DNA of 64,000 nucleotides, from positions 4,007 to 68,006 of IMG/VR virus record IMGVR_UViG_3300010283_000006; one strand, 5' to 3'. The stretch's first letter is position 1. The number at the start of each line of letters is the position of its first letter. Below, piece after piece: positions 9,640 to 63,373 of this stretch. Made by a program: the position numbers and the translations under genes. Under the pieces are notes generated by a model. That model was not told the origin of the DNA and did no database searches. It saw only the letters and a program-made list of their open reading frames with translations. The stretch is from a virus. Its lineage: Duplodnaviria > Caudoviricetes.

Positions 9640-10092
9640 ATGAACGAAAATTTGATACCCAAAATAGCTGAAATGTTAGGGGTAACTCTTAATGAAAAAT
9701 TTAAGATTGATAAATATGGCAATAGGATATTTAAGTTTAGTGATGATAGCCTTTGGGAAAGAGTTGTAGAAGGTGATGATGAAAATCAATACGTTACTTG
9801 GGGCGAAAGCTTGCTCTGTCTAAAACAACTTCTTAATGGTAATGCTAAAGTTATCAAATTGCCGTGGAAACCGAAAGTGGGCGATACTTTCTATACTTTC
9901 GATTTAATTTATGGGAAATGGGTTGTTTGCTCATTTACACGAGCATGGATAGGTTCTCCTTCCAATTATGCTTTACTTGATAAAGGATGGATATATCGTA
10001 CAGCTAAAGAAGCACTGCAAAACTTACCTAAAGTTGCTAAAGAATACGATGTTCCGTGTTCCTTAGATGGACAATCTTACGAGGAAGATTAA
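9640..10092 (+). CDS. Hypothetical phage protein, paralog B (ORF track starts at 9529)
   Basis: AAAGGAG RBS before MNENLIPKI; same LGV/KFKI/KLPWKPK/GWI motifs as paralog A. Confidence 0.7.
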   Translation: MNENLIPKIAEMLGVTLNEKFKIDKYGNRIFKFSDDSLWERVVEGDDENQYVTWGESLLCLKQLLNGNAKVIKLPWKPKVGDTFYTFDLIYGKWVVCSFTRAWIGSPSNYALLDKGWIYRTAKEALQNLPKVAKEYDVPCSLDGQSYEED

Positions 10093-11222
10093 TGAAAATA
10101 GGAATTATTGACGCTGATTTAATTGGTAGAAAGAAACATTACTTTCCTAACCTTGTATGTATGAAGTTATCTGCGTGGCACAAGAAAAAAGGTGATAAAG
10201 TAAAGTTTTTAACTCAATATTATCACCTTACAGAATATGACAGAGTATATGTAGCTAAAGTATTTACAGATACACCTGTTCCTGACGAAGTTTTGAAAAT
10301 GTCTAATGTTATATATGGTGGTACTGGTTTCTTTTATGATAAAGCTGTTCCACTTATGTTTGAAATAGAACAGATTAAACCTGACTATCACCTATATGAC
10401 GAATATGTAAAACAAAAACTATCTGAAGGACAGAGTAGAGATAAATACAAATACTATCTTGATTATTCTATCGGTTTTGCTACTAGAGGTTGCTTTAGAA
10501 AATGCCCATTCTGCGTCAACCAAAATTCAGAGTACGTGACTTTACATTCTAATATTGTTGACTGGGTAGATAAAGACAGAAAGAAGATTTGTCTATTAGA
10601 CGATAATGTTTTGGGTGCTAAACAATGGCAATGGGTATTAGAAAAGCTAATACAGATTGGTAAGCCATTTCAGTTTAAGCAAGGATTAGACGAACGCTTA
10701 CTTACTCACGAAAAACTAGAATGTTTAAGAAATTGTAAGCTTGATGGTGATTTAATCTTTGCTTTTGATAACTTGGCTGACAAAAATATTATTATCTCAA
10801 AACTGAATCTGTTACGTATTTTCTTTCCAACTAAAAAGAATATAAAATTCTATGTTTTATGCGGATTTGATAGAGATAATAAATACGATAAAGAGTTTTG
10901 GATAAAAGATATTCATTCAGTATTTGAGCGTATCAAAATATTAGCTAATTATGGTTGCAAGCCTTATATTATGAGATTTGCAAAGTACAAAGAAAGTCCA
11001 TTTAAAGGTACTTATATTAACCTTGCAAGCTGGTGTAATCAGCCTAGTATATATGCTCATTATAGCTATCAAGATTACTGTTTAGAAAAAGACAAACAGC
11101 TTCACGATGATAGAAAATCTTCTACATACAGATATTACGAAGAATTTCTGCCTTATATGACAGAAGAAGAAAAGACTTTTCAATTTAAAGGGAGATACAA
11201 TTATGCAAGTAACGAATACTAG
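10092..11222 (+). CDS. Radical SAM protein with N-terminal B12-binding-like segment
   Basis: TRGCFRKCPFC (CxxxCxxC); N-terminal IGIIDAD...PNLVCMKLSAWHK..GD.V; LLDDNVL. Confidence 0.82.
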   Translation: MKIGIIDADLIGRKKHYFPNLVCMKLSAWHKKKGDKVKFLTQYYHLTEYDRVYVAKVFTDTPVPDEVLKMSNVIYGGTGFFYDKAVPLMFEIEQIKPDYHLYDEYVKQKLSEGQSRDKYKYYLDYSIGFATRGCFRKCPFCVNQNSEYVTLHSNIVDWVDKDRKKICLLDDNVLGAKQWQWVLEKLIQIGKPFQFKQGLDERLLTHEKLECLRNCKLDGDLIFAFDNLADKNIIISKLNLLRIFFPTKKNIKFYVLCGFDRDNKYDKEFWIKDIHSVFERIKILANYGCKPYIMRFAKYKESPFKGTYINLASWCNQPSIYAHYSYQDYCLEKDKQLHDDRKSSTYRYYEEFLPYMTEEEKTFQFKGRYNYASNEY

Positions 11223-13502: not shown

Positions 13503-13604
13503 ATGCAAAGTTATATTAAACAAGGTGATTGCTTAGAATTGAACGAGAATTATTTCAATATTGCGAAAGAAAGGATTAAAACATATGAAACAAAAAGAAA
13601 CTGA
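13503..13604 (+). pseudogene. Collapsed N4/N6 DNA methyltransferase remnant (N-terminus fused to C-terminus)
   Basis: AAGGAG RBS then MQSYIKQGDCLE|LNENYFNIAKERIK: GDCLE is the usual start and E.NENYF.IAKERI the usual end of beta-class phage MTases. Confidence 0.72.
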
Positions 13605-14124
13605 TGTAGAAGAAGTCATTGTTCATCAATACAAACTGCGCTTCAAAGGTGACTATTACAGAGTTTTAGTTACTGGCAGTAAATATGAAGCCGAAAAATA
13701 TATGAAAACCGAACTTAAAGCTGACGAAATTATTTGGGAAAAGTCTTTCGTAACTAACAAAGATATTGCTATCCGTGTAGGTACTGGCAATAAAACTATT
13801 GCTATGCAAGGTTGTTTCTTGCGAATGAAGTATCTTAGTGCAATGTCAGCGAAACGCTCTAATAATACATCAACCTCTCAACCTCTTAATATGGAGAAAA
13901 TCCAATCTGCTATTAGAAAAGATAGTAATACTAAATTTACTGTTAAAGAAATTAGAAAAGCTCAAAAAATTAGCACTAAAGAACTTGCTGGTGAATTGTT
14001 TATTGACAAGAATTATCTTTATAGTATCGAAAGAGGGAGAATTATCCCTGATGATGATATGAAAGCATTGATTAGTCAATTTTTAAATGTAGATGTAGAT
14101 AACATTGATTGGTTAGGTGAATAA
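13585..14124 (+). CDS. XRE-family HTH protein (C-terminal HTH)
   Basis: VKEIRKAQKISTKELAGELFIDKNYLYSIERG. Confidence 0.78.
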   Translation: MKQKETDVEEVIVHQYKLRFKGDYYRVLVTGSKYEAEKYMKTELKADEIIWEKSFVTNKDIAIRVGTGNKTIAMQGCFLRMKYLSAMSAKRSNNTSTSQPLNMEKIQSAIRKDSNTKFTVKEIRKAQKISTKELAGELFIDKNYLYSIERGRIIPDDDMKALISQFLNVDVDNIDWLGE

Positions 14125-14893
14125 CTTGAATAATACTTTAGACTATGAATTAATGGAATATCTTAGACAAAGTAAACTTCAAGAGTATTCTCTTAGTAGA
14201 AATCATTGGAGAGCTATTGAAAGAGCTTGTAATAAACGTCTTACAGACCAGTTAAACGAAACCTACAAATATAATCCTGAATACATCTATATTGAAAATG
14301 AAAGAGTATGCACCATAGAGTTCTTTTATAAAGAGCTAAAGAAAAGAATAGCGGTTACACCATTTTATGATGTATTGATGGTTTATGTTAACTGTAAGAA
14401 CAATGCTTTGGCTACTGCTAAAGAGCTAAGTGTATCTCATACTACAATTAATAATCACTTAAAGAAACTTCAGGGAATTGTAGATGAATTACTTCAGGAA
14501 TTAGGATTATCTAAAGATGAATTTAAATCTTATTTTACGCCTGAAATTAGTAATTACTTTGCTAGTTCATCTACTAATGTAGGTTATCCGTTTGAACATT
14601 ATATGAATTTACCTAAAGATAAGGAATGGCAAGATAAGTTCGGGACTAAACGTACAAAAGAACAAAATACCTGCCTTATTCCTGAATACTTACAGGCTTG
14701 TGGTTTGTGCAGTTGTCAATGTAATATCTGTACCGACACGAATAATTGTAGACGCAAAGATGTTTTCCCTGATAATGATAGAACTGGTGTATTAAAGCTT
14801 AGTAAAGCTAAAATCGAAGAATGTATTAACAATGCTATCGCTAATACATCAGCTTCAGCTTACAGTGGCTTAGAAAGGATTTATCAGATATGA
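14117..14893 (+). CDS. Possible sigma-like/HTH transcription factor with Cys-rich C-terminus
   Basis: ATAKELSVSHTTINNHLKKL HTH; CGLCSCQCNIC cluster. Confidence 0.45.
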   Translation: MNNLNNTLDYELMEYLRQSKLQEYSLSRNHWRAIERACNKRLTDQLNETYKYNPEYIYIENERVCTIEFFYKELKKRIAVTPFYDVLMVYVNCKNNALATAKELSVSHTTINNHLKKLQGIVDELLQELGLSKDEFKSYFTPEISNYFASSSTNVGYPFEHYMNLPKDKEWQDKFGTKRTKEQNTCLIPEYLQACGLCSCQCNICTDTNNCRRKDVFPDNDRTGVLKLSKAKIEECINNAIANTSASAYSGLERIYQI

Positions 14894-15429: not shown

Positions 15430-16242
15430 TTATATAGCAGAGAATATATCTCTAACTTGTTCTCTATGTTGTTGGCTGATATGTAAGTATCTTTGCGTAG
15501 ATTGGATTGATTTATGTCTAAGATGTTCTTTAATTACGAATAGGTTAATATTATTATCCAACAAAGTTACTGCTGAACCATGCCTAAAGCTATGACAATG
15601 CAATTCAGGATAACCAGCTTTAATACAGATATTTTTAATCTCTCTATAAAAAGCTACATAACCAATCTGTGTATTATTTCTAGTATGTAGTAAGTAAGTG
15701 CTGTTATAATCTATATATTCTTTAATCATACTAGCTAAACCATCTGTGATATAAACTTTATAGTCATTATGGTTTTTCGTATCTACAAGAAGAATTGATT
15801 TTTCATCTGCATTATAATTAGCTGTTTTAATACTCAAAACTTCTTCAGCTCTTAAACCATTCTGAAACATTAAAGATACAGCTATCTTACTTCTTAGATG
15901 TGCACAATGGTATAGGATGCGATGATATTGTTCTTTACTGACTACTGCTGGAACAATAGTCTTAGTATCTACTGATTGTAAAACTTGCAAGATAACTGGT
16001 AGACCATCAATGGTGATGTAGTTAGATAAAAAATCAATAAACTTCTTTAATATCCTACATCTTAGAGCTTTAGTATTTACTGAACAATCCCATTGTTGTA
16101 ATTTACTATTGATAAAATCCAATTCCAAATTTACTTTTCCATCCGAAAACCAATTTTTAAAGGCATTACAATAAGTGGTATAAGTATTGGTGGCTCTAGT
16201 AGCCTTAACCGACGCAAGATATTGTTTCAGGTATAAATCCAT
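15430..16242 (-). CDS. XerC/D-like tyrosine recombinase (no arm-binding domain)
   Basis: GLRAEE (Arg I), HSFRH (HxxR), LRHKSI and TQRY (catalytic Tyr); 270 aa. Confidence 0.9.
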   Translation of the reverse strand: MDLYLKQYLASVKATRATNTYTTYCNAFKNWFSDGKVNLELDFINSKLQQWDCSVNTKALRCRILKKFIDFLSNYITIDGLPVILQVLQSVDTKTIVPAVVSKEQYHRILYHCAHLRSKIAVSLMFQNGLRAEEVLSIKTANYNADEKSILLVDTKNHNDYKVYITDGLASMIKEYIDYNSTYLLHTRNNTQIGYVAFYREIKNICIKAGYPELHCHSFRHGSAVTLLDNNINLFVIKEHLRHKSIQSTQRYLHISQQHREQVRDIFSAI

Positions 16243-47506: not shown

Positions 47507-47893
47507 ATGAATATAGCTAATATTAAACTTCCTGAAGAATGGCAGTTGGACTTATATAAAAAAGAAAAAATCTCTAAGCTAAAAAGTGACAGAGATAATA
47601 AAGAAGTAGAACCGATAAAATACAATGGTTTTTTATATGATTATGATAGTAAAGCTAGAGAAAGAATAAATGCAGCTATCATTGCTTTAGATGATATGGG
47701 TGCTGGTTCTAGAATAAATTGGACAACTTATAATAACTATGATGTATTAGTTACAGCTAATGATTTACGTAAAATTATTGCAAATGTAGCTATTAGAAGT
47801 AATAAATTACACACAGTTTATAGGCTTGCTAAAGAGAAAGTAGAACAGGCTACAACTAAAGAAGAAGTAGATAAAATTACATTAGAGCTTTAA
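47507..47893 (+). CDS. DUF4376-like fibre-associated protein, copy 1
   Basis: YDYDSKARERI...INWTTYNN...T.NDL. Confidence 0.7.
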   Translation: MNIANIKLPEEWQLDLYKKEKISKLKSDRDNKEVEPIKYNGFLYDYDSKARERINAAIIALDDMGAGSRINWTTYNNYDVLVTANDLRKIIANVAIRSNKLHTVYRLAKEKVEQATTKEEVDKITLEL

Positions 47894-47918: not shown

Positions 47919-48725
47919 ATGGCAGAAACAATTCCTAAGTTAATAACTGATGTGGAAAAATACTTCCAGTACGAAGGCTCTGCTAATCCAACTACACAAG
48001 ATGAATTGCAAGCTTTTATGAAGAACGAGCATAGTGTAGTAGCTTGTTTGACTAAAAAGTTATGGCAACCTGAAACCAACTATACACAAGGGCAGATTGT
48101 TGAAAGTCCAAATATGCCAGTTGGTTTTTATGCGGTTGCTTTAGTTAATGGTACATCTTATAGTAATGAGCCTGACTGGGGTAATGGTAGTACCGATATT
48201 TCTGATGGTAGTATGAAGTGGTATATGACTAAAGGTAATATTACAGTTAATGGTGTAAAGCCTGATGATAGCGGTAATATACAGATTGATAATATTGCTC
48301 ATGCGAATAATGCAGATAATGCTACTAAAGCTACAAACGATAGTAAGGGACAAAATATTACTGGTTACGTAAAAAAAATTGGGGGCAATAACAGTAGTTT
48401 AGTTATTACTGATGGTAATGGCAATGAAAGTACAATTAATATTGCTACTGACGCTAACCCTTTTACTAAAAATATTAATGTGACAGCAAGTACGCAGGAA
48501 ACTATAAAGCCTACTATGAGTGTATCAGTATCAACCAATCGTAGTACCAGCGTGGGTGTTAGTATTAGTAATACAATAGATACAATTACTGGTTTGAAAG
48601 CTGGAACTTATACATTACAAACACTCTTGCAGAATTTAGTAAATCAAAGTCATAAACACAGTAAAATTAACATAAGCGCATCGGATTCAGACGGTAATTG
48701 CGATTGTTGTGGCTCTGATTCTTAA
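47919..48725 (+). CDS. Tail fibre protein with switchable C-terminal tip (variant A expressed in this orientation)
   Basis: LWQPETNYTQG and TVNGVKPDDSGNI fibre motifs; ends SHKH...NCDCCGSDS; crosses inverted repeat at 48484-48497. Confidence 0.8.
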   Translation: MAETIPKLITDVEKYFQYEGSANPTTQDELQAFMKNEHSVVACLTKKLWQPETNYTQGQIVESPNMPVGFYAVALVNGTSYSNEPDWGNGSTDISDGSMKWYMTKGNITVNGVKPDDSGNIQIDNIAHANNADNATKATNDSKGQNITGYVKKIGGNNSSLVITDGNGNESTINIATDANPFTKNINVTASTQETIKPTMSVSVSTNRSTSVGVSISNTIDTITGLKAGTYTLQTLLQNLVNQSHKHSKINISASDSDGNCDCCGSDS

Positions 48726-48978
48726 CTATCAGAATCACCTGCACAGCAATTACAGTTTTTATAACTATTATAATGATATGTTGTATGCGTGTGAGATTTA
48801 TCAACCAGTTGTTGTAAAAGATTTTTAAGTGTGTAAGTTCCACCGCTTAAACCTGTATTTGTTCTAAACTGTACGTACCCTGTATAAGTATCGCCTTTAC
48901 CAACATCTTCGTTAATATCGTAAACATTACAACTAGCTTCACTACTGCTGATAGTTCTATATCTCTGCGTACTTGCTG
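48484..48978. mobile_element. Putative 495-bp invertible DNA cassette bounded by 14-bp inverted repeats CAGCAAGTACGCAG
   Basis: IR at 48484-48497 (+) and 48965-48978 (-); inversion keeps frame (ASTQ) and joins an 80-aa paralogous tip. Confidence 0.85.
48722..48964 (-). CDS. Silent alternative C-terminus (variant B) of the tail fibre; no start codon
   Basis: RYRTISSSEASCNVYDINEDVGKGDTYTGYVQFRTNTGLSGGTYTLKNLLQQLVDKSHTHTTYHYNSYKNCNCCAGDSDS*. Confidence 0.85.
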   Translation of the reverse strand, partial: RYRTISSSEASCNVYDINEDVGKGDTYTGYVQFRTNTGLSGGTYTLKNLLQQLVDKSHTHTTYHYNSYKNCNCCAGDSDS

Positions 48979-49004
48979 GTTTAAAATAAAGAAGGTGATA
49001 ATAA

Positions 49005-49895
49005 TTGATAGAACTTAGCCGTGTTTGTATTCCATTAGGGTTAGATTGTAACTTTAAATGTAGATATTGTTATCGTGATTTTTGTCGCAAACAAATACCA
49101 ACTAAATTATCTAATTGTGTAAAAGAATATTTAAAACAGCTTACACCTGATAAAACAGAAAGCGTGTGTATGTCAGGTGGCGAACCTTTAATTTATTGGA
49201 ATACTATTAAAGAAATATATAGTTATCTTCCTAAAGATATTCACTTGAAAATAATGACTAACGGAAGTTTATTAACGCAAGAAATTATAGATTTTGTTAA
49301 CCAAAATAATGCTGAAATTTTCTTTAGTCACGATGGTATTCAAACAAAGTATCTTAGAGGGATAGATGTACTAGAGGATAAAAATAAACTACAATTAATT
49401 AAACAAGTTAAAAATTTAGTTGTTGCTAGTGTAATCACTAATCGTAATGAAGATTTAGTAAAAAATTATCAATATATCAGTGAAAAGTTACAAAGAGAAG
49501 ATTTTGTATATAGATTTACCAATTTAATGGATACTGGTTATGTAGATGATTTGATAAAGGGATTTAACTATGATGTATTTGCTAGGAGTTATAGAGAATA
49601 TACTGAAAACTATAAAACAGAAGTTCCTTATTACAATAGAATAGAGCGTAATAAAAAGTATAATATGGGTGGCTTTAATGTGGATTTAGATGGTAATGTT
49701 ATAGGTATGAATACATTAAAGAAGTATGGCACGATATACAATACATATGAGGAATGTTATCAAAAAATGTTAGAGGTAGAGAATTTATATTGTACTAAAG
49801 TTAATTGTCCTTTAATTTTTAATTGCCAAACAGTTAAACAAGGTGTAAGTGAACATACTTGTAAATGTGTGAAAGCTATGAATGGAGTTTTATGA
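49005..49895 (+). CDS. Radical SAM protein 1 (reduced SPASM)
   Basis: CNFKCRYC, SGGEP, IMTNG; C-terminal Cys cluster; TTG start after AAGGTG. Confidence 0.85.
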   Translation: MIELSRVCIPLGLDCNFKCRYCYRDFCRKQIPTKLSNCVKEYLKQLTPDKTESVCMSGGEPLIYWNTIKEIYSYLPKDIHLKIMTNGSLLTQEIIDFVNQNNAEIFFSHDGIQTKYLRGIDVLEDKNKLQLIKQVKNLVVASVITNRNEDLVKNYQYISEKLQREDFVYRFTNLMDTGYVDDLIKGFNYDVFARSYREYTENYKTEVPYYNRIERNKKYNMGGFNVDLDGNVIGMNTLKKYGTIYNTYEECYQKMLEVENLYCTKVNCPLIFNCQTVKQGVSEHTCKCVKAMNGVL

Positions 49896-50959
49896 TGAGT
49901 ATAGATAGAAAATACGATATATTAAATGTTAAAACCATATATCTTATGATGGGATTTAATTGTAATTTTAGATGTAGACATTGTATACAGGATAGTTGCA
50001 ATACATCTATACAAAAAAATAATATTAGCAAAGATGTAATAGATTACTTAAATCGGCTAATAAATATTAGACCAACAAGCTATGATAAAATTACTATAAT
50101 GTTTTGGGGTGGAGAACCATTAATTTATTGGAATACTATTAAAGATGTAATTGATATTTTTCATGATAAATTCAGTTATTCTATGGTAACTAATGGCAGT
50201 TTACTTACGCAAGATAAGGTTGATTATATTAATAAATATCAAATAAAAGTGGCACTGTCTTATGACGGGAAGAACACTGATAAAGTTCGTATGGTAAATG
50301 TATTACAAGATAAGGATAAGTTAGAATTATTTAAGCAGATAAAAAATAAAAGCATCTGTGCAGTAAGTTCTGCTTATAATTATGATTATCAAGAATTATA
50401 CAATCATATAGATGAATTAATTGATACGGAAATTCCAGTAGGTATTGAACAATTTAGAGTAACTTGGGATATGCCAAAAGATTTATATGATATTGATTTA
50501 GTAGAATATCGAGATAAATTACATGAGTTAGCTATACAAGCAAAAGAAGATATTTTAAACGTAAAATATAGTAGACCAGTTAGTTTTTTCTTAAAACACT
50601 TATGGGGATTATGTTATACAGATAAGATGTATAGTTTGAAATGCGGGCAAATGTATAATAAGTTAAATATTGACTTACAGGGAAATATATATTCTTGCCA
50701 TAACTTGTGTAATCCTATCGGTACTGTGCGTGATGATAGGGTTAGTTTGGTTAATAAACAGGATAGATGGGTAAGTGATAATTTACCTACTAACTGTAAA
50801 AACTGTAAATATTACATTGTATGTAATGGTGGTTGTCCAAATGAATTAATTAAAGATGGTGAGCGCATTTCTTGTAAGATTAATAAGGTAATATTTGATG
50901 AAGTGTTTTGGTTGGCTAATGAATTAGAGAATAGTTTTATGTGTGTAGATTTGGGGTGA
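49892..50959 (+). CDS. Radical SAM/SPASM protein 2
   Basis: CNFRCRHC, WGGEP, VTNG, SYDG; SPASM CGQ...GNIYSCH...CKNC...CNGGCP...C. Confidence 0.9.
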   Translation: MMSIDRKYDILNVKTIYLMMGFNCNFRCRHCIQDSCNTSIQKNNISKDVIDYLNRLINIRPTSYDKITIMFWGGEPLIYWNTIKDVIDIFHDKFSYSMVTNGSLLTQDKVDYINKYQIKVALSYDGKNTDKVRMVNVLQDKDKLELFKQIKNKSICAVSSAYNYDYQELYNHIDELIDTEIPVGIEQFRVTWDMPKDLYDIDLVEYRDKLHELAIQAKEDILNVKYSRPVSFFLKHLWGLCYTDKMYSLKCGQMYNKLNIDLQGNIYSCHNLCNPIGTVRDDRVSLVNKQDRWVSDNLPTNCKNCKYYIVCNGGCPNELIKDGERISCKINKVIFDEVFWLANELENSFMCVDLG

Positions 50960-50963
50960 TATT

Positions 50964-51722
50964 TTGAAAGTTAAGATTATTCATAAAGAGTATATAGAAA
51001 ACAAAAGTTATGATGAAGAAGGCAATGAACTAAAGAACGAACAACAAGAAGAATATAAATCTCCATATGAAATTACTTTAGATGGCGATATTCTTAATAT
51101 TAAAGTATCTACTAAATATCATAATAAAGATGTAGAATTTTCTACTCAATTTGATTTATCCAATCAAGATGATAAATTGCTAGAAGTTTTGCTTAGAGAT
51201 AGTATGAATGGAACAGAGCTTAGCTGTTATGAAATTTTTAAATTTGTAGATACTATCACTGGAACAAGAAATTATTCTTACAATGGCGATAAGATTTGTA
51301 GAGTGCTTATTGATAAGGAAAATAATACTTGCTGGATATATTTGTTTTTACGTACTAAAGATATTAATGGTTTTAAAAATGTATTACAGAAAACAAATAT
51401 ATCTACAACTGGTATGTTACAATCCGTATGTCCTTGGTTTAAACAGCGTTGTGTAGACATTGAACGAAAAAGAAAGCTTATTAATGAAGTAGATATTTAT
51501 AAATCTATTGCTTATCTTGAAGCACAGGTAGATTTATTAACAAGGTTGGTTATTCAATATGCACCTAAATCAAAATTAGTAGAGTTATTGGAGATTGCGG
51601 ATAAATATTCTGTTTTAAATAACAAGCCTGACGAAGATATAAAAAATGAGTTTGAAGTAAGTAAAGCTGATTTTAGAAAGAAACAGGAAGATTACTATGA
51701 GCGAGTGCAAAAAACCTTATAA
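50964..51722 (+). CDS. Hypothetical protein within the radical SAM cluster
   Basis: Coupled ORF; C-terminal coiled-coil. Confidence 0.6.
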   Translation: MKVKIIHKEYIENKSYDEEGNELKNEQQEEYKSPYEITLDGDILNIKVSTKYHNKDVEFSTQFDLSNQDDKLLEVLLRDSMNGTELSCYEIFKFVDTITGTRNYSYNGDKICRVLIDKENNTCWIYLFLRTKDINGFKNVLQKTNISTTGMLQSVCPWFKQRCVDIERKRKLINEVDIYKSIAYLEAQVDLLTRLVIQYAPKSKLVELLEIADKYSVLNNKPDEDIKNEFEVSKADFRKKQEDYYERVQKTL

Positions 51723-52713
51723 ATCGCTGGTGTTAAAATTAGGTGGACAATGTAATTTAAACTGCAAATATTGTCACTGTAAGCGTGTAGATTTTAAATT
51801 CAATCCCGATATATATAAATATATAGAGGATAATGGATATAATCATATTGTATTTAGTGGCGGTGAGCCGCTGTTATATTGGAATATTATTAAAGAAGTT
51901 ATAGAGCATTTTGGCGATAGTATTAGGTATAGGCTTGTTAGTAATGGGAATTTACTTAACAAGGAAATAGTAGATTTTCTCAATGAATATGATGTTTATT
52001 ATTGCGTATCTTATGATGGTAAAAATAATTTTAGCCGTGATATAAATAGTGCTATTCGATGGAGAGAATTTGCTAAAATTAACAATATCGGATTTGCCAC
52101 GTTGTATAGTTATAGTAATGAGGATATTAATAAATTACTGCAAGATATAGAAAGCGAAATCAATCGTTATCACTTAAATATAAATATTGGCACAAGGCAT
52201 ATTAATTTCCCGCATTCTACAAATATTAACAAGAATGATATGATTGATAGAGAGTTGGCAAAGAAGTATTGTATGATTATATGTAGGTTTTTGGAATTAG
52301 ATTTTATTAAGCTAAAATCTATAAACGATTATAAACAAGTTAATTGGTTTAAAGATTTTCCAGTTATAAAGAAATGTTTTGAGAGGTATATAAAAAAACA
52401 AGAAATCCGTGGAGTTAAATGTTGTAATGAGAATATTACTCCAATGACTATCGAAGGGAAGTTTTTATTATGTCCTTATGATGAACAGTATGTTGGTGAT
52501 ATTTATACTGGTATTGACTGGGATAAAGTTGAAAGTTATATTCCTGATAGATGTAAAGGTTGCCCGCAATGGAAATCTTGTATGAATACTTGCATCGCAA
52601 ATGTTACGGATAATGAGTGCTATATTAGTAAAGTAATATATAAGCATTTTTACAAACTCATGGATAAATACAATTATGATTATAATTTTATGAATGAACA
52701 TATTACGAGGTGA
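51697..52713 (+). CDS. Radical SAM/SPASM protein 3
   Basis: CNLNCKYC, SGGEP, VSNG, SYDG; KCC...LLCPY...CKGC...CMNTC...C. Confidence 0.88.
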   Translation: MSECKKPYKSLVLKLGGQCNLNCKYCHCKRVDFKFNPDIYKYIEDNGYNHIVFSGGEPLLYWNIIKEVIEHFGDSIRYRLVSNGNLLNKEIVDFLNEYDVYYCVSYDGKNNFSRDINSAIRWREFAKINNIGFATLYSYSNEDINKLLQDIESEINRYHLNINIGTRHINFPHSTNINKNDMIDRELAKKYCMIICRFLELDFIKLKSINDYKQVNWFKDFPVIKKCFERYIKKQEIRGVKCCNENITPMTIEGKFLLCPYDEQYVGDIYTGIDWDKVESYIPDRCKGCPQWKSCMNTCIANVTDNECYISKVIYKHFYKLMDKYNYDYNFMNEHITR

Positions 52714-52717
52714 TAAG

Positions 52718-53170
52718 ATGGAATTTGAATATGCTATTAAATTAGCTTTAGGCATTACTGCTTTAGAAGATATTCCTATTATGTTTAGGGATAAAGCTAG
52801 TGATTTACAGAATACAGAAGAATTACTGGAGTACGTTCGCAGTAAACAATGGGAAGAAATTAAGGTGAATAGAGATAATGCAGAAACAAGTGGGTTGCCG
52901 TTTAAAGATAAAATTCTTGATTATGATATGCGTAGTGCTTTTAAACTAGATATTGCTATGGAAACAGCTAAACAAGTTGGGGAAGGTTTTTCTATTGATT
53001 GGACTATGCAGGATAATACAGTAATGACTTTAACTTATTCTGATTTGTTATCTATTCCGTTAATTGCGGCTAATTATTCTAATGAATTACATAAGAAAGC
53101 TAGAATTTATCGTGATAAGATTTATAATGAAACAGATATTAAAGCTATTGCTAAAATCAAATGGGAGTAG
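52718..53170 (+). CDS. DUF4376-like protein, copy 2
   Basis: LDYDMRSAFKL...IDWTMQDN...LTYSDL; paralog of 47507-47893. Confidence 0.7.
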   Translation: MEFEYAIKLALGITALEDIPIMFRDKASDLQNTEELLEYVRSKQWEEIKVNRDNAETSGLPFKDKILDYDMRSAFKLDIAMETAKQVGEGFSIDWTMQDNTVMTLTYSDLLSIPLIAANYSNELHKKARIYRDKIYNETDIKAIAKIKWE

Positions 53171-53173
53171 ACA

Positions 53174-54175
53174 ATGGATAGGTTATTACAGGTTCATCTT
53201 AGCGAAAAATGTAATTTAAAATGTAAGCATTGTTATCAAGAAGGGAAAGATTGTAAGTCTTTTATAGATTTGCAGTCTTTTTCTGTTTTATTAGACCAGT
53301 TCAAAGAGCTAACTGACTATACTAAATGTGATAAAATGACTATGAACTTAACGGGTGGCGAACCATTGTTGTTTAAGAATATTTTAGATTATATTGATTT
53401 AGCACGAGCTAAAGGTGTTGGTAAAATTAGGTTACTTACAAATGGCTTATTATTAACTAGAGAATTATTACAACAGCTAAAAGATAGAGATATTGGTATT
53501 CAAGTATCTATTGAAGGAACAAGAGAATGTAATGATTTTATTCGTGGTAAAGGTTCATTTGATAAAATTTTAAAAAGCATTTCTTTAGCTAAGTCTATGG
53601 ATATAGATATATTAGTATCTTACACTCTTAATGGTTGGAATTGTGAATTTGTATCTGATACAATAGATGAAGTTTATAGAGCTGGTGCTAAAGGAATATG
53701 GTTTGATAGAGTTATTCCATTTAATAATAATATTCCAATTATGACAGAAGAACAGTTTATATATACGATGCAAACTATTAGAGATAAGAAAGAACAATAT
53801 AAAGATAGTAATTTTAATGTTCAACTACAAAGAGCTATGCAATTTTTCTTTAATGATTGTAGCAGTTGCTATCGTTGTAGTGCTATTAATAGAGCTTTTA
53901 CTGTTCTATCTAATGGAGATATTCTTCCATGTAGACGTATGCCTATTTCACTTGGTAATTTTAAGTCAAGAACATTACTAGATATTTATAAAAGTAATAG
54001 TTGTCAAAAGTTAGGTGAGGCTATAAATAGTATTTCTGATGAATGTAATGGTTGTGAGTATATAAATTATTGCAAAGGTGGTTTAAGATGCTTAACTTAC
54101 GCTTTGCATGGCACTTTCAACAAAGGAGATGTACATTGTCCGGTTTTAGCTCTTAAACAATTAGAAAGTAGGTGA
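53174..54175 (+). CDS. Radical SAM/SPASM protein 4 (canonical SPASM)
   Basis: CNLKCKHC, TGGEP, LTNG; CSA...GDILPCRR...CNGC...CKGG.RC...C. Confidence 0.9.
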   Translation: MDRLLQVHLSEKCNLKCKHCYQEGKDCKSFIDLQSFSVLLDQFKELTDYTKCDKMTMNLTGGEPLLFKNILDYIDLARAKGVGKIRLLTNGLLLTRELLQQLKDRDIGIQVSIEGTRECNDFIRGKGSFDKILKSISLAKSMDIDILVSYTLNGWNCEFVSDTIDEVYRAGAKGIWFDRVIPFNNNIPIMTEEQFIYTMQTIRDKKEQYKDSNFNVQLQRAMQFFFNDCSSCYRCSAINRAFTVLSNGDILPCRRMPISLGNFKSRTLLDIYKSNSCQKLGEAINSISDECNGCEYINYCKGGLRCLTYALHGTFNKGDVHCPVLALKQLESR

Positions 54176-58098: not shown

Positions 58099-58590
58099 AT
58101 GATTTTTTACAAAGATGAGAAAATCAGATTAACTCTTACTGGTAATCGTGATTTTAGTGATTATAGCAAGTTTTGTTTTTATGCTGATAATTTCATTCAG
58201 CAAATTCTTACATCAATACTAATTACTAAAAACTTTAAAAGCAATGAAATTGAAATTATTGTACTTGAAGGAATGGGATTAGAAGATTTTACAAGACAGT
58301 ACGCTAAAGAACACAATTATCATGTCATGGAAGTTGAATTAGGGAATAAAGACGAAATTAAACAAGATTATTTGTCCTTAAAAAATCTATATGGAGATAA
58401 GGTAAGATTAGAAGATTATTTTGATATTGCTAGAAATTATATGATTACAAAGATGGCTAGTTTTGTTCTCATTTTTTGGGATGGCAGAAGAAATTCAACT
58501 AAAATGTTATATGATATATGTCATGCTTCTGATGATGTGAGTTCTATGTTAATTACTTATTCTAAAGTTGGTGCTGGATTATGTTCATAA
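58099..58590 (+). CDS. YspA/SLOG-family-like protein
   Basis: LTLTGNRDFSDY...RNY.....VLIFWDG...STK pattern. Confidence 0.6.
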   Translation: MIFYKDEKIRLTLTGNRDFSDYSKFCFYADNFIQQILTSILITKNFKSNEIEIIVLEGMGLEDFTRQYAKEHNYHVMEVELGNKDEIKQDYLSLKNLYGDKVRLEDYFDIARNYMITKMASFVLIFWDGRRNSTKMLYDICHASDDVSSMLITYSKVGAGLCS

Positions 58591-60518
58591 ACCTGCATAC
58601 TCACGATAGTAAAGGCTCTGTTCGTGATGCAATAGCTATTCCTGAAGAAATTACTGCTAGAGTAAAAGAGTTAAATCAAACTGCTTATGCTATCACTAAT
58701 CATGGTAGTACGAGCAGTCTACTAACTCATTATAAGTTAGCTAAAAAAGCTGATTTAAAATTTGTCTTTGGTTTAGAAGCATATATCTGTTCTCATATCG
58801 GTATTAAAGATAGAGATTATAAGCATATCTGTTTGTTCGCTAAAGATATGACTGGTTATCTAAATATTTTAAAGATGGCTACAATCAGTTATGATAAAGG
58901 TTTCTATTATAAGCCTAGAATTGACTGGAATATTCTTAGAGAACATCAAGAAGGGTTAATTATCTCTAGTGCTTGTTTAGGTGGTATTCTTGTTTTCAGG
59001 AATGAAGATGGTAGTTTTAATGAAATGGCTATCTTTCACGAATTAGAAAAATGTAAGAATGATTTTGGTGATAACTTTTATATTGAGTTCCATACTAATC
59101 AGATGAAAGAACAGATTGAGTTTAATAAGTTGTTATATCGTATGTGTAATGATTTGAATATTACGAATGTTATAGCTACTTGCGATGCTCATTATGTTTT
59201 AAAAGAACAGGCTTGGGTACATCGTTATTGGAATGGTATTGATGAAAATGATGAGAAAGCCTATTATCAGACAGATGATTTTTACTTACATTCAGAAGAT
59301 GAAGTAAAGAAAGCATTGTCTTATTTGCCTAAAGATTTTGTTCAACTTTGCATTGATAATACAGTTAAATTGACTGATAGATGTAATGTTGAATTAAAGT
59401 TTGGTGAAGATAATTTCCCAATCTATAAATGTGATAATCAGGTCGAGAAAGTTAAAGAAATTTGTAGAATAGGTTGGAAAGATAAGATTATTCCATTTAT
59501 TCCTAAAGATAATCGACAGGTGTATTTAGATAGGTTTCTTGAAGAAATGAATATTTTAGAGAAAGCTAATTATCTTAATATGATGCTGATTACATGGGAT
59601 TATATGAAGTGGGGACAGGATAATGGTATTCGGTTTGGTGTAGGTAGGGGAAGTGTAGGTGGCAGTTTAGTTGCTTATTTAATGGATATAACTAAAGTAG
59701 ACCCAGTTAAAAACAATTTATATTTTTCACGTTTCTGTAATTTACATAGAGTGACAACCGCGGATATAGATGTCGATGTTATGCAAAGAGAAAGACAAAG
59801 AGTAATTGAATACCTGCGTGAGAAGTATGGTTATGTTTATCAGGTTAGAACTTTTACAAGTATGAAGCCTAAAGCCGCTTTACAGAAAGCTGGAATGTGT
59901 TTAGGTGTGCAAGCTAGTAAAATCAGAGAGTTATCTAAATTAATCAATGATGATGATAAATTATCTAATGATGATAAGTTTGCTGATATTCCACTTAAAA
60001 CAGAAGAAGATAAAAAGCTAGTTAAATTAGCTAAAGCATTTTTAGGTATTATTTCTAATACTTCTGTTCATGCTAGTGCAGTATTGGTTTTTCCAAAAGA
60101 GCCAACTAATTTCTGTGCTATTGAACGAAAAGGTGATACTTTCTTAGCGGCTTATGATTACCACGAATTAGAAGAATTAGGCTTAGCTAAGATTGATGTT
60201 CTTGGTTTGAAAAATATGGATATTATTCAAGATACTTTAGATTTACTTAAACAACAAGGTATTGATTTAGATTTAAATACAATTCCAACAGACGATAGTA
60301 AAACAGCAGAATTATTGTGTAATGCTGAAACTGCTGGTGTATTTCAGATTGAAAGTAATATGATGCGTGGTTTAGTAAAGGAAATTCAGCCAAAGTGTTT
60401 TGAAGATTTAACTGCTATTGTTGCTTTAGGTAGACCAGCAGTATTATCTTGTGGAATTGACAAAGAGTATATCAAAGAAAGGAAGAAAAAGATTGGTATT
60501 CATTCTAGGACAAAATAA
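58581..60518 (+). CDS. dnaE: DNA polymerase III alpha, N-terminal part (PHP + palm)
   Basis: LHTHD/TNHG/CDAHY PHP, GRGSVGGSLVAY, ADIDVD, HASAV and KIDVLGL; ends after ALGRP. Confidence 0.92.
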   Translation: MFINLHTHDSKGSVRDAIAIPEEITARVKELNQTAYAITNHGSTSSLLTHYKLAKKADLKFVFGLEAYICSHIGIKDRDYKHICLFAKDMTGYLNILKMATISYDKGFYYKPRIDWNILREHQEGLIISSACLGGILVFRNEDGSFNEMAIFHELEKCKNDFGDNFYIEFHTNQMKEQIEFNKLLYRMCNDLNITNVIATCDAHYVLKEQAWVHRYWNGIDENDEKAYYQTDDFYLHSEDEVKKALSYLPKDFVQLCIDNTVKLTDRCNVELKFGEDNFPIYKCDNQVEKVKEICRIGWKDKIIPFIPKDNRQVYLDRFLEEMNILEKANYLNMMLITWDYMKWGQDNGIRFGVGRGSVGGSLVAYLMDITKVDPVKNNLYFSRFCNLHRVTTADIDVDVMQRERQRVIEYLREKYGYVYQVRTFTSMKPKAALQKAGMCLGVQASKIRELSKLINDDDKLSNDDKFADIPLKTEEDKKLVKLAKAFLGIISNTSVHASAVLVFPKEPTNFCAIERKGDTFLAAYDYHELEELGLAKIDVLGLKNMDIIQDTLDLLKQQGIDLDLNTIPTDDSKTAELLCNAETAGVFQIESNMMRGLVKEIQPKCFEDLTAIVALGRPAVLSCGIDKEYIKERKKKIGIHSRTK

Positions 60519-61222: not shown

Positions 61223-61377
61223 TGCTAGAACATGAAATTGCTTATATAACAGCAGTTACTTATGTATTATTTCGTTTGATTGCTGTCGGATTATTGTTAT
61301 TTGTATTAGCTACTTTGTCTATGTACGCTTTTTATTATCTGTTGAAATTAGGGAGAAAATTATTCGATGAGTGGTAA
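61222..61377 (+). CDS. Small membrane protein inside the dnaE split
   Basis: TAATG-coupled, 51 aa, hydrophobic; overlaps the dnaE-C start. Confidence 0.5.
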   Translation: MLEHEIAYITAVTYVLFRLIAVGLLLFVLATLSMYAFYYLLKLGRKLFDEW

Positions 61378-63373
61378 TATTATTTTACATGGGTTAGATG
61401 AAAGACTTGATAAGATTTTAGAAGATACTTATTATCAGCTAATTTATCAAGAACAGGTAACTGCAATAGCTACGCAATTAGCTGGTTGGTCAGAAGGTGA
61501 AGCTGATGGTATTCGTAAAACTATCGGCAGAAAAATTCAGAAAGAACTTGACTTGCTTATTCCTAGACTGATTAAAGATTTTATTAGTCATGGAATGAAA
61601 GAAGAAAGTGCAAAACAATTAGCTAGTGCTATACAGGCTTGTGGTAGCTACTCGTTCAATAAATGTTTAGCTGGTAGTGAAACTATTATGCGATTAAATA
61701 ATTGTATGCCCTTAACGCTAGAGGAAATGTATAAGATTTGTAATAACAAAGATTATGCTAAAAAAACAGGGCATAGAAGTCTGTGTTTTAAATATCGTAG
61801 ACATAATTATGGTACTGGTTATAGCATGGATGAAGAAAATACAGTTATAGATAATAGAATTTTTAATATTGAATTTGGTGGAATTAGAGAAGTATTTAAA
61901 GTTACTTTATCTAATGGCGAAACTGTTCGTTGTACATCTAACCATAAATTTCCAACTAATAAGGGTGTATTGCAATTATCAGAGTTACAGGTAGGTGATA
62001 GTCTTTATGTAATTAAAAAAGAAAAGCAATTAAATTATGGCTATATGGTTGGAGAAGGAACTAATTTACCGCAAAAAGGGCAATTAGGTTTTCAAAAAAA
62101 AGAAATTGCTATATCTAGAATATTTGAAAACTATCGTGATGAATGTAAAAATTTAAAAAAATCATGTGAACTTTGTGGTAAGTCTTATGATGGAAGTAGG
62201 TTTGAATTACATCATAAGGATTTAAATAGAAATAATAGTAACTTAACTAATCTTCAATGGCTGTGTTGTTCTTGTCATAAAAAAGAACATTATCGTATCG
62301 GTAGGCGTTCTGTTGGGTATGCTAGAAGATATTTTGAAGAATGTGAAATTATATCTATTGTACCTGATGGCGTTGATAATACTTATTCAGTGGAAATGCT
62401 TGGTGAGCCACATAATTTCGTGTTAGCTAATGGTATTGTAAGTTGTAATTCTCATTCTGTTGAATATGGTTTAATAGCATATCAAACAGCCTACTTAAAG
62501 GCTAATTACCCAGTACAATATATGTGCTCATTACTTAATGCCAATATAGATACAACAGATGATGTAATTCCTTATATCAACGAATGTAAGCGTATGGGAA
62601 TTAAAATATTACCACCTGATGTAAGTAGAGGAAATCTTCTCTTTGTTCCTGAAAATGGTGCTATCAGAGTTGGTTTGTCTTATATTAAAGGTATTAGCAA
62701 TATTACTGTCGATTATTCTGATAAAGGCAATCTAATTAACTTCTTTGCTCGTAATAAATATAACAAGCGTATTAAAGAAGCATTAATTAAAGCTGGTGCA
62801 TTAGATTGTTTTAATTGTAGTAGAGCAGAACAATTTGCTATCGCCATGAATATCAAAGATGAAATCAATAGCGAGAAAACTAAAATTAGAGTGGCTAATA
62901 CTAAAATCAGAGAAAAAGAAGAAGAATTAGCTAAATCTAAAGAAGGCACTAAAAAGGTTGGTAATCTTAAAAACCAAATAGAAAATCAACATAAAGCTAT
63001 TGCTAAATCAGAAAAAAGAATTAAAGAATTACAAGACAGTATTAAAGCTGATTATGATGAAGCACAAGGCGAAATTGATGTTCTTGGTTTTACTTTTCAT
63101 GATAAATATGAGAAGTACGATACTGAAAAATATCAGGTATATAACAAAGAACTGACAATTCAACAGAAGATAATTTGTGATATTATTTCCGTCAGAAAGA
63201 TTAAAGATAAACGTGGTAGGAATATGGCATTTATATCTGCTATCCCATATATGGGTGTAAAGCAAGACTTTGTTATGTTCGCTAATCACTATCAAGAAGT
63301 TAAAGACGGAATATATGCTATGTTAGTAGCTGGAAATCAAGTTATCGGCGTTGGTGTAGCACAAAAAAAATAG
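61367..63373 (+). CDS. dnaE: DNA polymerase III alpha, C-terminal part (fingers/HhH/OB) with intein
   Basis: ILEDTY..IYQEQV, ADGIRKTIGRK, YSFNK|SHS..Y..IAYQTAYLKANYP, ILPPDVS and ALIKAGALD. Confidence 0.92.
   Translation: MSGNIILHGLDERLDKILEDTYYQLIYQEQVTAIATQLAGWSEGEADGIRKTIGRKIQKELDLLIPRLIKDFISHGMKEESAKQLASAIQACGSYSFNKCLAGSETIMRLNNCMPLTLEEMYKICNNKDYAKKTGHRSLCFKYRRHNYGTGYSMDEENTVIDNRIFNIEFGGIREVFKVTLSNGETVRCTSNHKFPTNKGVLQLSELQVGDSLYVIKKEKQLNYGYMVGEGTNLPQKGQLGFQKKEIAISRIFENYRDECKNLKKSCELCGKSYDGSRFELHHKDLNRNNSNLTNLQWLCCSCHKKEHYRIGRRSVGYARRYFEECEIISIVPDGVDNTYSVEMLGEPHNFVLANGIVSCNSHSVEYGLIAYQTAYLKANYPVQYMCSLLNANIDTTDDVIPYINECKRMGIKILPPDVSRGNLLFVPENGAIRVGLSYIKGISNITVDYSDKGNLINFFARNKYNKRIKEALIKAGALDCFNCSRAEQFAIAMNIKDEINSEKTKIRVANTKIREKEEELAKSKEGTKKVGNLKNQIENQHKAIAKSEKRIKELQDSIKADYDEAQGEIDVLGFTFHDKYEKYDTEKYQVYNKELTIQQKIICDIISVRKIKDKRGRNMAFISAIPYMGVKQDFVMFANHYQEVKDGIYAMLVAGNQVIGVGVAQKK
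61664..62449 (+). mobile_element. Intein (262 aa) with HNH endonuclease, inserted at FNK/SH
   Basis: Starts CLAG, block B CTSNHKF, HNH CELC...HHKD.N..N...NLQWLC..CH..EH, ends HNFVLANGIVSCN before Ser. Confidence 0.92.

Follow-up and report, generated by a model that had tools for sequence, protein, structure and literature searches.

Radical SAM genes beside invertible, Cys-rich tail-fibre tips: a candidate maturation system in phages

Why should a phage carry four genes for radical S-adenosylmethionine (SAM) enzymes between its tail-fibre gene and its lysis genes? The question is raised by the virus record IMGVR_UViG_3300010283_000006, a 68-kb IMG/VR viral contig with a completeness rating of 97%, of which bases 4007-68006 were analyzed (64,000 nucleotides, G+C ~31%; hereafter the window, to which coordinates given without a locus handle refer). 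An original prediction, made from the letters of this stretch, had proposed that the phage may modify the Cys/His-rich tip of its own fibre in the manner of peptides that are made on ribosomes and altered after translation (RiPPs) and combine this with DNA inversion. Receptor-binding tips determine which bacteria a phage infects, and to our knowledge fibre tips are thought to mature by folding, chaperones, metal binding or self-cleavage only. Our analysis suggests that a cassette of three of the enzymes (r1-r3) probably does modify the fibre tip, which bears a short run of alternating Asn/Asp and Cys residues (the ladder) close to its C-terminus.

Two fibre tips exchanged by inversion

The tail-fibre gene (47919-48725, + strand, 268 aa in its present orientation) encodes an N-terminal domain of the fibre/baseplate type, then a repeat of the NADNATKA type and, at the C-terminus, the tip domain. 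Its product has no match in Pfam or PHROG; in BFVD, models of phage tail fibres and baseplate wedges are matched by its AlphaFold2 model (E 2e-8 to 1e-3), and the N-terminus is common to the fibres of three related loci (L005, L013 and L016). The end of the gene lies within a segment of two convergent tip cassettes (48484-48978), bounded on the left by the inverted repeat CAGCAAGTACGCAG (48484-48497, +), which falls within the codons for T-A-S-T-Q, and on the right by the identical 14-mer as a minus-strand copy (48965-48978). This perfect repeat is present in exactly two copies in the window, where 0 are expected (100 shuffles). The active tip (48486-48722, +, 79 aa) consists of a variable stretch, the helix TLQTLLQNLVNQ, SHKH, the ladder NCDCC and the end GSDS, and the silent alternative (48725-48976, -, 84 aa, without a start codon) of a variable stretch, GTYTLKNLLQQLV, SHTH, NCNCC and the end AGDSDS, the two frames converging on a common stop region. 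The tips are identical at 14 of 45 positions before GTYTL and at 21 of 42 from GTYTL on, and GTYTL..LLQ.LV, SHxH and NC(D/N)CC with a Gly/Asp/Ser end are kept in both. SHxH and a terminal NC(D/N)CC followed by small and acidic residues, as described in the original prediction, can be read directly in both frames.

The inversion, also part of that prediction, is borne out by a natural flipped variant. In a Logan contig from a near-identical phage (L027), the 467 bp enclosed by the repeats run the other way round, being 98.5% identical to the window as the reverse complement and 58.5% directly, with flanks at 98.7-100%, and the L027 fibre (P0039, 273 aa) joins the identical N-terminal 194 residues to the alternative tip. 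Because this segment is flipped between matching flanks, the inversion is real, and both orientations occur in nature. A 69-aa database protein (P0051) closely resembles the active tip and, from its sequence, would fit a silent copy in a flipped relative. The ASTQ motif at the inversion repeat is conserved across the tip family and marks the start of the tip domain. The crossover site itself codes for TASTQ, with which the tip domain starts in many unrelated members of the family, and this boundary may be a general point of recombination or exchange for tips.

Ladder tips and the enzyme cassettes beside them

To describe the family, we used a profile of 71 positions (A3) that combines both tips of the window with five remote relatives. 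From 1.84 billion representatives it drew 189 clusters (at the level of 50% identity) with E <= 1e-3, of which 49 reach E <= 1e-10. Both window tips belong to this family and align at every invariant column. The domain is almost always C-terminal, in proteins of 69-640 aa, and defines a large family that carries no annotation; searched as a profile against the PDB, it gave no match. Its layout starts with the TASTQ junction and a variable stretch, after which come an amphipathic helix of the pattern GTYTLxxLLQxLV, then SHxH and a further variable stretch, this one short, and finally the N-C-x-C ladder with an end of 3-6 Gly/Asp/Ser residues. Among 98 members caught by a strict pattern, the ladder holds 3-6 cysteines, and its single-residue spacers are Asn (148/282) or Asp (84/282), together 232/282. 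The residue before the first ladder Cys is Asn in 78 of the 98, HxH stands 8-10 residues ahead of the ladder in 71, and after the ladder the protein ends within 1-6 residues, in a tail rich in Asp, Ser and Gly. In place of this short tail, 19 of the 98 carry an extension of 150-212 residues that starts with Cys; two extended members match Pfam Hom_end_hint, one scoring just over the cut-off and one just under. Self-cleavage of such a Hint domain would leave a ladder-ended C-terminus like that of the other members. Hint-extended ladder proteins are encoded at L013:4846-6087, L029:3282-4007 and L040:2670-4121 (PJWF_00028 of Achromobacter phage JWF), and their self-cleavage would perhaps proceed via a thioester, which could be usable for further chemistry. 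The protein P0049 matched generic fibre repeats only, and in the locus L007 the common element was likewise only a generic fibre repeat.

The association of ladder tips with radical SAM enzymes carries the argument. All of the ~25 tip or ladder loci with enough flanking DNA have radical SAM/SPASM genes within a few genes. The pairing was found in five IMG/VR contigs reached via r2 at 36-37% identity (L008-L012), in Phascolarctobacterium-type prophage contigs and a JGI contig reached via the 252-aa protein of the cassette (L013-L015), in five contigs reached by a DNA pattern for the helix (L016, L022, L024-L026), and also in L027, L029, L031, L034 and L035. A metagenome-wide pattern scan gave radical SAM genes in 11 of 11 informative contigs, with 6 more too short to judge. 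The genomic co-occurrence of NCxC-ended fibres with radical SAM clusters, which the original prediction had put forward as a test, is therefore strong and holds in every informative locus. One locus, L034, had been considered a tip without enzymes and was rejected as such, its contig opening with the SPASM end of a cut-off gene 3.3 kb upstream. As a rule the tip gene is followed by the r1-type and r2-type genes, then by those of the accessory protein, the r3-type enzyme and the DUF4376 protein, with one or two enzymes in some lineages. Relatives of the cassette are found in metagenome-assembled genomes of Sutterella, Parasutterella, Acidaminococcales and Phascolarctobacterium, all of them gut anaerobes.

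As a background, r2-like genes occur in 42 of 50,697 GenBank phage records, and some of the 42 show the tip pairing; BLAST of the fibre, of the 8-kb region and of the 252-aa protein against the same records gave no match. In Achromobacter phage JWF (genes PJWF_00028-00030), the fibre carries an NCNCDCNCNC ladder together with a Hint domain, and behind it come an accessory-protein homologue and a single radical SAM gene, directly ahead of the lysis genes. The side tail fibre of Ralstonia phage RSP15 ends in NCQCGN, two genes ahead of a radical SAM gene, and in a Campylobacter phage a protein with CxCNYCT repeats is encoded ~3 kb upstream of one. The latter protein (L039:1132-2694, from vB_CjeM_WX1) has five CxCNYCT repeats and many more Cys-x-Cys pairs; because of these repeats and of its place upstream of the radical SAM gene, its annotation as "putative N-acetylneuraminate pyruvate lyase" is probably wrong.

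Two comparisons show which element of the tip goes with the enzymes. The Sutterella prophages and JWF keep ladder, enzymes and accessory protein in the absence of the helix and SHxH. Because the pairing persists there, helix and HxH are not essential and the ladder is the common denominator of the association, so that the conserved TYTL..LLQ.LV helix does not hold as the general recognition element that had been suggested. The second comparison is with the sister phage L005, in which the flanking genes are ~95% identical and the N-terminus of the fibre is shared (89% over residues 1-126), while the fibre has another C-terminus and both ladder and radical SAM genes are missing. The block standing in place of tip and enzymes (L005:10001-13661) encodes a different fibre end and proteins of 419 (Gly-rich), 349 and 198 aa. 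By eye, the 349-aa protein resembles a pyridoxal phosphate enzyme of Cys/Met metabolism, and the replacement block may be another enzyme-assisted fibre module.

The accessory protein (50964-51722, +, 252 aa) is conserved and matches no named family; its 35 clusters are all unnamed and without a Pfam match, and it travels with r1-r3. Its homologue in JWF was recognized by hhalign (probability 96%, E 3e-9). The AlphaFold2 model (predicted local distance difference test, pLDDT, 87) has an N-terminal beta-sandwich and a C-terminal helical bundle. Fold searches returned nothing clear (the best being SPP1 gp22 with Z 4.6, besides helical-bundle noise) and lent no support to the protein as a stand-in for a RiPP recognition element (RRE), and a protein atlas search gave no match. 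Complex prediction of this protein with the tip scored 0.01, which speaks neither for nor against binding. Judged by sequence and gene order, r1-r3 and the 252-aa protein are an ancient core inherited together with ladder tips.

The enzymes and the chemistry they may perform

The four enzymes are encoded on the + strand at 49005-49895 (r1, 296 aa), 49865-50959 (r2, 364 aa, the true start maybe lying ~10 codons further in), 51697-52713 (r3, 338 aa) and 53174-54175 (r4, 333 aa). All of them match Pfam Radical_SAM (PF04055) at E 9e-11 to 1e-18 (r1, 4e-13; r3, 9e-11; r4, 1e-18), with 42.7-68.3 bits against a cut-off of 29.5, and keep CxxxCxxC within the first 40 residues as well as GGEP. The canonical SPASM pattern CX2CX5CX3C is present in r2, which also reaches 41.3 bits for SPASM TIGR04085 (cut-off 27), and in r3 (residues 286-299), for which no SPASM model stands among the listed matches; r4 has the variant CX2CX5CX5C and a Pfam SPASM match (E 1e-8, 35.6 bits, cut-off 21.5). 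In r1, the C-terminal Cys pattern of the auxiliary-cluster region is degenerate. Of the four radical SAM genes with SPASM-like ends that had been predicted, the radical SAM assignment thus stands for all, and the SPASM-like end for r2, r3 and r4, with r1 keeping only the degenerate pattern.

The enzymes differ in their history. Orthologues of r1, r2 and r3 in other phages are 33-48% identical to them (r1, 33-48% in L008, L009, L013, L015 and L024, as the first enzyme of those cassettes; r2, 36-40%; r3, 36-48%), and r1, r2 and r3 share 30-36% among themselves. Because the identity between phages exceeds that within the cassette, r1-r3 are an old triplet of orthologues that diverged anciently, and a recent local expansion is ruled out. 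For r4, a related-locus search gave no match, and other cassettes have no orthologue of it. It has 477 relatives at E <= 1e-20, mostly bacterial chromosomal genes, and the two contexts inspected are unrelated to phage or peptide genes. Since it has no counterpart beyond the phage lineage and its chromosomal relatives stand in unrelated contexts, we do not attribute r4 to the tip; it is a lineage-specific, host-like addition outside the conserved system. The predicted coupling of four enzymes to the tips accordingly holds for the core r1-r3 and not for r4.

As to the reaction, the nearest characterized relatives are the thioether-forming maturases PapB, SCIFF/CteB and QhpD. None of the family cut-offs is reached: for PapB (NF047865, cut-off 340 bits) r2 scores 105, r4 97, r1 55 and r3 53 bits, for the SCIFF maturase (TIGR03974, 425 bits) r2 scores 75, for QhpD (TIGR03906, 453 bits) r2 scores 68.6, and for anSME (TIGR03942, 349 bits) r4 scores 80 and r2 54 bits. 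The best PDB relatives are CteB (5WGG) and 8VPO for r1-r3, and SkfB, the best, and CteB for r4. The alignment of r2 to 5WGG begins at residue 86 of the latter, past the RRE of CteB; because alignments begin after that element and CxxxCxxC lies near the N-terminus, r1-r4 have no room for an N-terminal RRE. No protease, transporter or RRE was found in the window cassette or its relatives, and the locus does not qualify as a canonical RiPP cluster. A RiPP-like modification of the fibre tip is therefore supported as far as co-inheritance with the enzymes goes, and not as a canonical RiPP system with leader, RRE, protease and exporter.

The steps may be pictured as follows. Inversion between the 14-nt repeats swaps tips that differ mainly in their variable stretches, with helix, HxH and ladder kept, and, if the variable stretches carry receptor specificity, would change the host range. 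Enzymes r1-r3 would bind directly to the tip, whether folded or still folding, in the way QhpD binds its protein substrate, and would use 5'-deoxyadenosyl radicals and auxiliary Fe-S clusters to join ladder cysteines to neighbouring residues; r4 would be an extra, lineage-specific enzyme. The likeliest links, within a chain or between chains, would be thioethers of the kind made by NxxcB and PapB, in which the sulfur is joined to the beta-carbon of the Asn or Asp next to the Cys. We infer this because the invariant N-C-x-C holds the NxxC spacing and because precedents exist in these enzymes and in QhpD: NxxcB links Cys to the beta-carbon of Asn, with Asp tolerated, PapB is likewise a precedent for Cys-to-Asn/Asp beta-thioethers (PMC9389541), and QhpD, a radical SAM/SPASM enzyme, makes Cys-to-Asp/Glu cross-links in a whole protein subunit without a leader (PMC7876137). 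The product would be a small, rigid, covalently stapled fibre end below the HxH site, where a metal ion is probably bound on the axis of the trimer. In the AlphaFold2 model of the fibre, TLQTLLQNLVNQ is predicted to be helical (pLDDT 83-91) and the ladder is left unmodelled. Thioether chemistry specifically on the ladder seems to us quite possible, if short of probable.

Other readings of the same locus have to be weighed. The ladder might be modified by another chemistry, be it an alpha-thioether (sactionine), an anSME-like oxidation of Cys that gives formylglycine or dehydro-residues, a C-C link or a bond between chains that staples the trimer. Sactipeptide, anSME and cyclophane maturases are among the NCBIfam matches with similarly weak scores, SkfB is the top PDB match of r4, and the presence of three different conserved enzymes suggests more than one reaction type. 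However, the target motif of anSME, C/S-x-P/A-x-R, was found in neither window tip. The alternation of Asn/Asp and Cys, moreover, fits the acceptor preferences reported for NxxcB and PapB (PMC9389541), and we regard a different chemistry as unlikely. Still less likely is a reading in which ladder and HxH form a metal or Fe-S knob and the enzymes act elsewhere, for example on a different residue or protein within the fibre module, on a component of the host envelope or on a metabolite. HxH motifs bind metal in the solved fibre tips of T4 gp12 and gp37, Cys-rich ends can bind metals, and r4 comes from a chromosomal bacterial family without a peptide partner. Against such a knob, r1-r3 are strictly co-inherited with ladders even where HxH and helix are absent, L005 loses the enzymes along with the ladder tip, and the relatives of the enzymes are peptide and protein maturases.

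A Cys-rich precursor followed by radical SAM maturases is also the classic order of a RiPP cluster, and the ladder protein might be a precursor whose end, once modified, is set free to serve as a bacteriocin, a signal or a lysis factor and forms no part of the virion. Some family members are indeed only 69-150 aa long, and about one fifth carry a self-cleaving Hint-like domain. However, the cassette has no protease, exporter or immunity gene, the tip is fused in frame, by inversion, to the fibre N-terminus and ends fibres of 250-640 aa, and some of the short members seem to be silent cassettes (P0051). The Hint domain, moreover, comes after the ladder, and therefore its cleavage would leave the ladder on the fibre. 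A released peptide is to our mind very improbable.

Modification of the ladder-bearing tip by r1-r3 has in turn several points that weigh against it. The link between tip and enzymes is drawn from gene association and family resemblance, and the place of the fibre in the virion from the position of its gene, from fold matches and from an N-terminal domain shared with other fibres. Every curated NCBIfam family cut-off lies far above the scores of the four enzymes; for this reason they are assigned to no named family and their chemistry cannot be read from homology. The window ladders, NCDCC and NCNCC, are short and atypical in comparison with the NCNCNC runs of the family. In L032, a distant locus from Parasutterella, a single radical SAM gene and a weak match to the accessory protein are present, with no ladder in 12 kb, and the host of JWF is an aerobe, which fits awkwardly with oxygen-labile enzymes. 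Taken at its widest, the modification of ladder tips would be a widespread virion chemistry, in which radical SAM enzymes without an RRE weave thioether staples, possibly inter-chain, into the Asn/Asp-Cys ladder at the receptor-binding fibre end, in phages of gut anaerobes and in cultured Achromobacter, Ralstonia and Campylobacter phages; one enzyme set would serve two invertible tips, coupling host-range switching with maturation, and Hint self-cleavage would expose the same modified C-terminus. This wide version we put forward tentatively, being doubtful that it holds in every part.

The surrounding locus and known systems

The cassette belongs to the last part of the late (structural) operon, with the tail-fibre gene on one side and the lysis genes on the other. 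A J-like central fibre gene is followed by small open reading frames (ORFs), a DUF6273 fibre protein, a DUF4376 protein, the 268-aa fibre gene and the radical SAM block, in which r1 and r2 precede the gene of the 252-aa protein, and r3 is followed by a second DUF4376 gene and r4. The four radical SAM genes interleaved with a hypothetical ORF and a second DUF4376 gene had been predicted in this form, and ORFs and Pfam matches agree with it. The first DUF4376 protein (47507-47893, +, 128 aa; PF14301, E 9e-14; PHROG tail protein families) is a fibre-module accessory upstream of the fibre gene. The second (52694-53170, +, 158 aa; Pfam E 3e-11) has the same place after the third enzyme in L013, L024 and L027. 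Close after r4, two small membrane proteins and an M15 peptidase follow in the operon, and from r1 through the lysis genes neighbouring genes overlap or are 3-4 nt apart. For the predicted holin flank, the small membrane proteins are present, and the label holin comes from position and membrane helices only.

The invertase might be a tyrosine recombinase (15430-16242, -, 270 aa; Pfam Phage_integrase, E 5e-26) encoded 32 kb from the tip cassette, which may alternatively be an integrase or a dimer resolvase. It is the only recombinase among the ORFs scanned; the Pfam scan covered only ~20 ORFs outside the fibre-lysis region, and contig bases 1-4006 lie outside the recombinase survey. No serine recombinase was found by a simple motif search over six frames, beside the cassette or among the scanned ORFs. 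The tyrosine recombinase has no arm-binding domain and adjoins helix-turn-helix regulators (13561-14893).

Farther from the cassette, a fifth ORF with CxxxCxxC (10056-11222, +, 388 aa, motif at residues 146-153) has no Pfam match at E <= 0.001 and, from its sequence, may be a divergent radical SAM protein of the early/replication region. DnaE is split in two genes (58581-60518 and 61367-63373, both +), the C-terminal part containing an intein splicing domain (34.4 bits, just under the Pfam cut-off of 35.8) with an HNH endonuclease inside (Pfam).

A literature search found no paper describing radical SAM maturation of a phage fibre, and the genes go unmentioned in papers about JWF-related phages. 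Particular to the window are the invertible arrangement in which one enzyme set serves two tips, the complete core of three enzymes accompanied by a fourth, host-like enzyme, and a sister phage without the whole module. The window thereby offers a clean natural experiment, in which a single enzyme set stands beside two tips that can be exchanged and the sister phage lacks both. If the tip is modified as proposed, phage assembly would have a new step, in which enzymes cross-link a virion protein by radical chemistry, SPASM enzymes would gain a new class of natural substrates in which whole proteins are recognized without leader or RRE, and fibres of the ladder family might fail in another phage or host unless provided with their own enzyme cassette.

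Phage genes of the r1-r4 type are already catalogued, since all four enzymes match PHROG 1802, "radical SAM domain-containing protein" (E 1e-17 to 6e-35); that entry gives neither function nor substrate, and the link to ladder fibres is unannotated. Among characterized systems, the cassette resembles those of PapB (freyrasin), CteB (5WGG) and the streptococcal NxxcB in placing enzymes with radical SAM and SPASM clusters beside the gene of a Cys-rich substrate, and the Asn/Asp acceptors next to Cys that are reported for PapB and NxxcB match the phage ladder (PMC9389541). Unlike these, the phage enzymes have no RRE and score far under the cut-offs (105 versus 340 bits for PapB), the proposed substrate is the end of a 268-aa fibre, with no leader-core peptide, protease or exporter, and three paralogous enzymes with an accessory protein stand in a late operon. 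QhpD/QhpC is similar in that the substrate is a protein that stays a structural subunit (PMC7876137), and QhpD is among the NCBIfam matches. The phage differs from it in score (69 versus 453 bits), in lacking QhpG, QhpE and the quinone cofactor, in the substrate family and in having a viral target.

With regard to the inversion, the locus is comparable to Mu (Gin), P1 (Cin) and the Rci shufflons, where inverted repeats in a fibre gene exchange the C-terminal receptor-binding ends. Of the features of Gin/Cin/Hin-type systems, repeats and both orientations are present here, and a serine invertase was not found next to the cassette or among the scanned ORFs. In contrast to Mu and P1, the repeats are only 14 nt long, the fibre-assembly genes are not inverted, and both ends would need the same downstream enzyme set.

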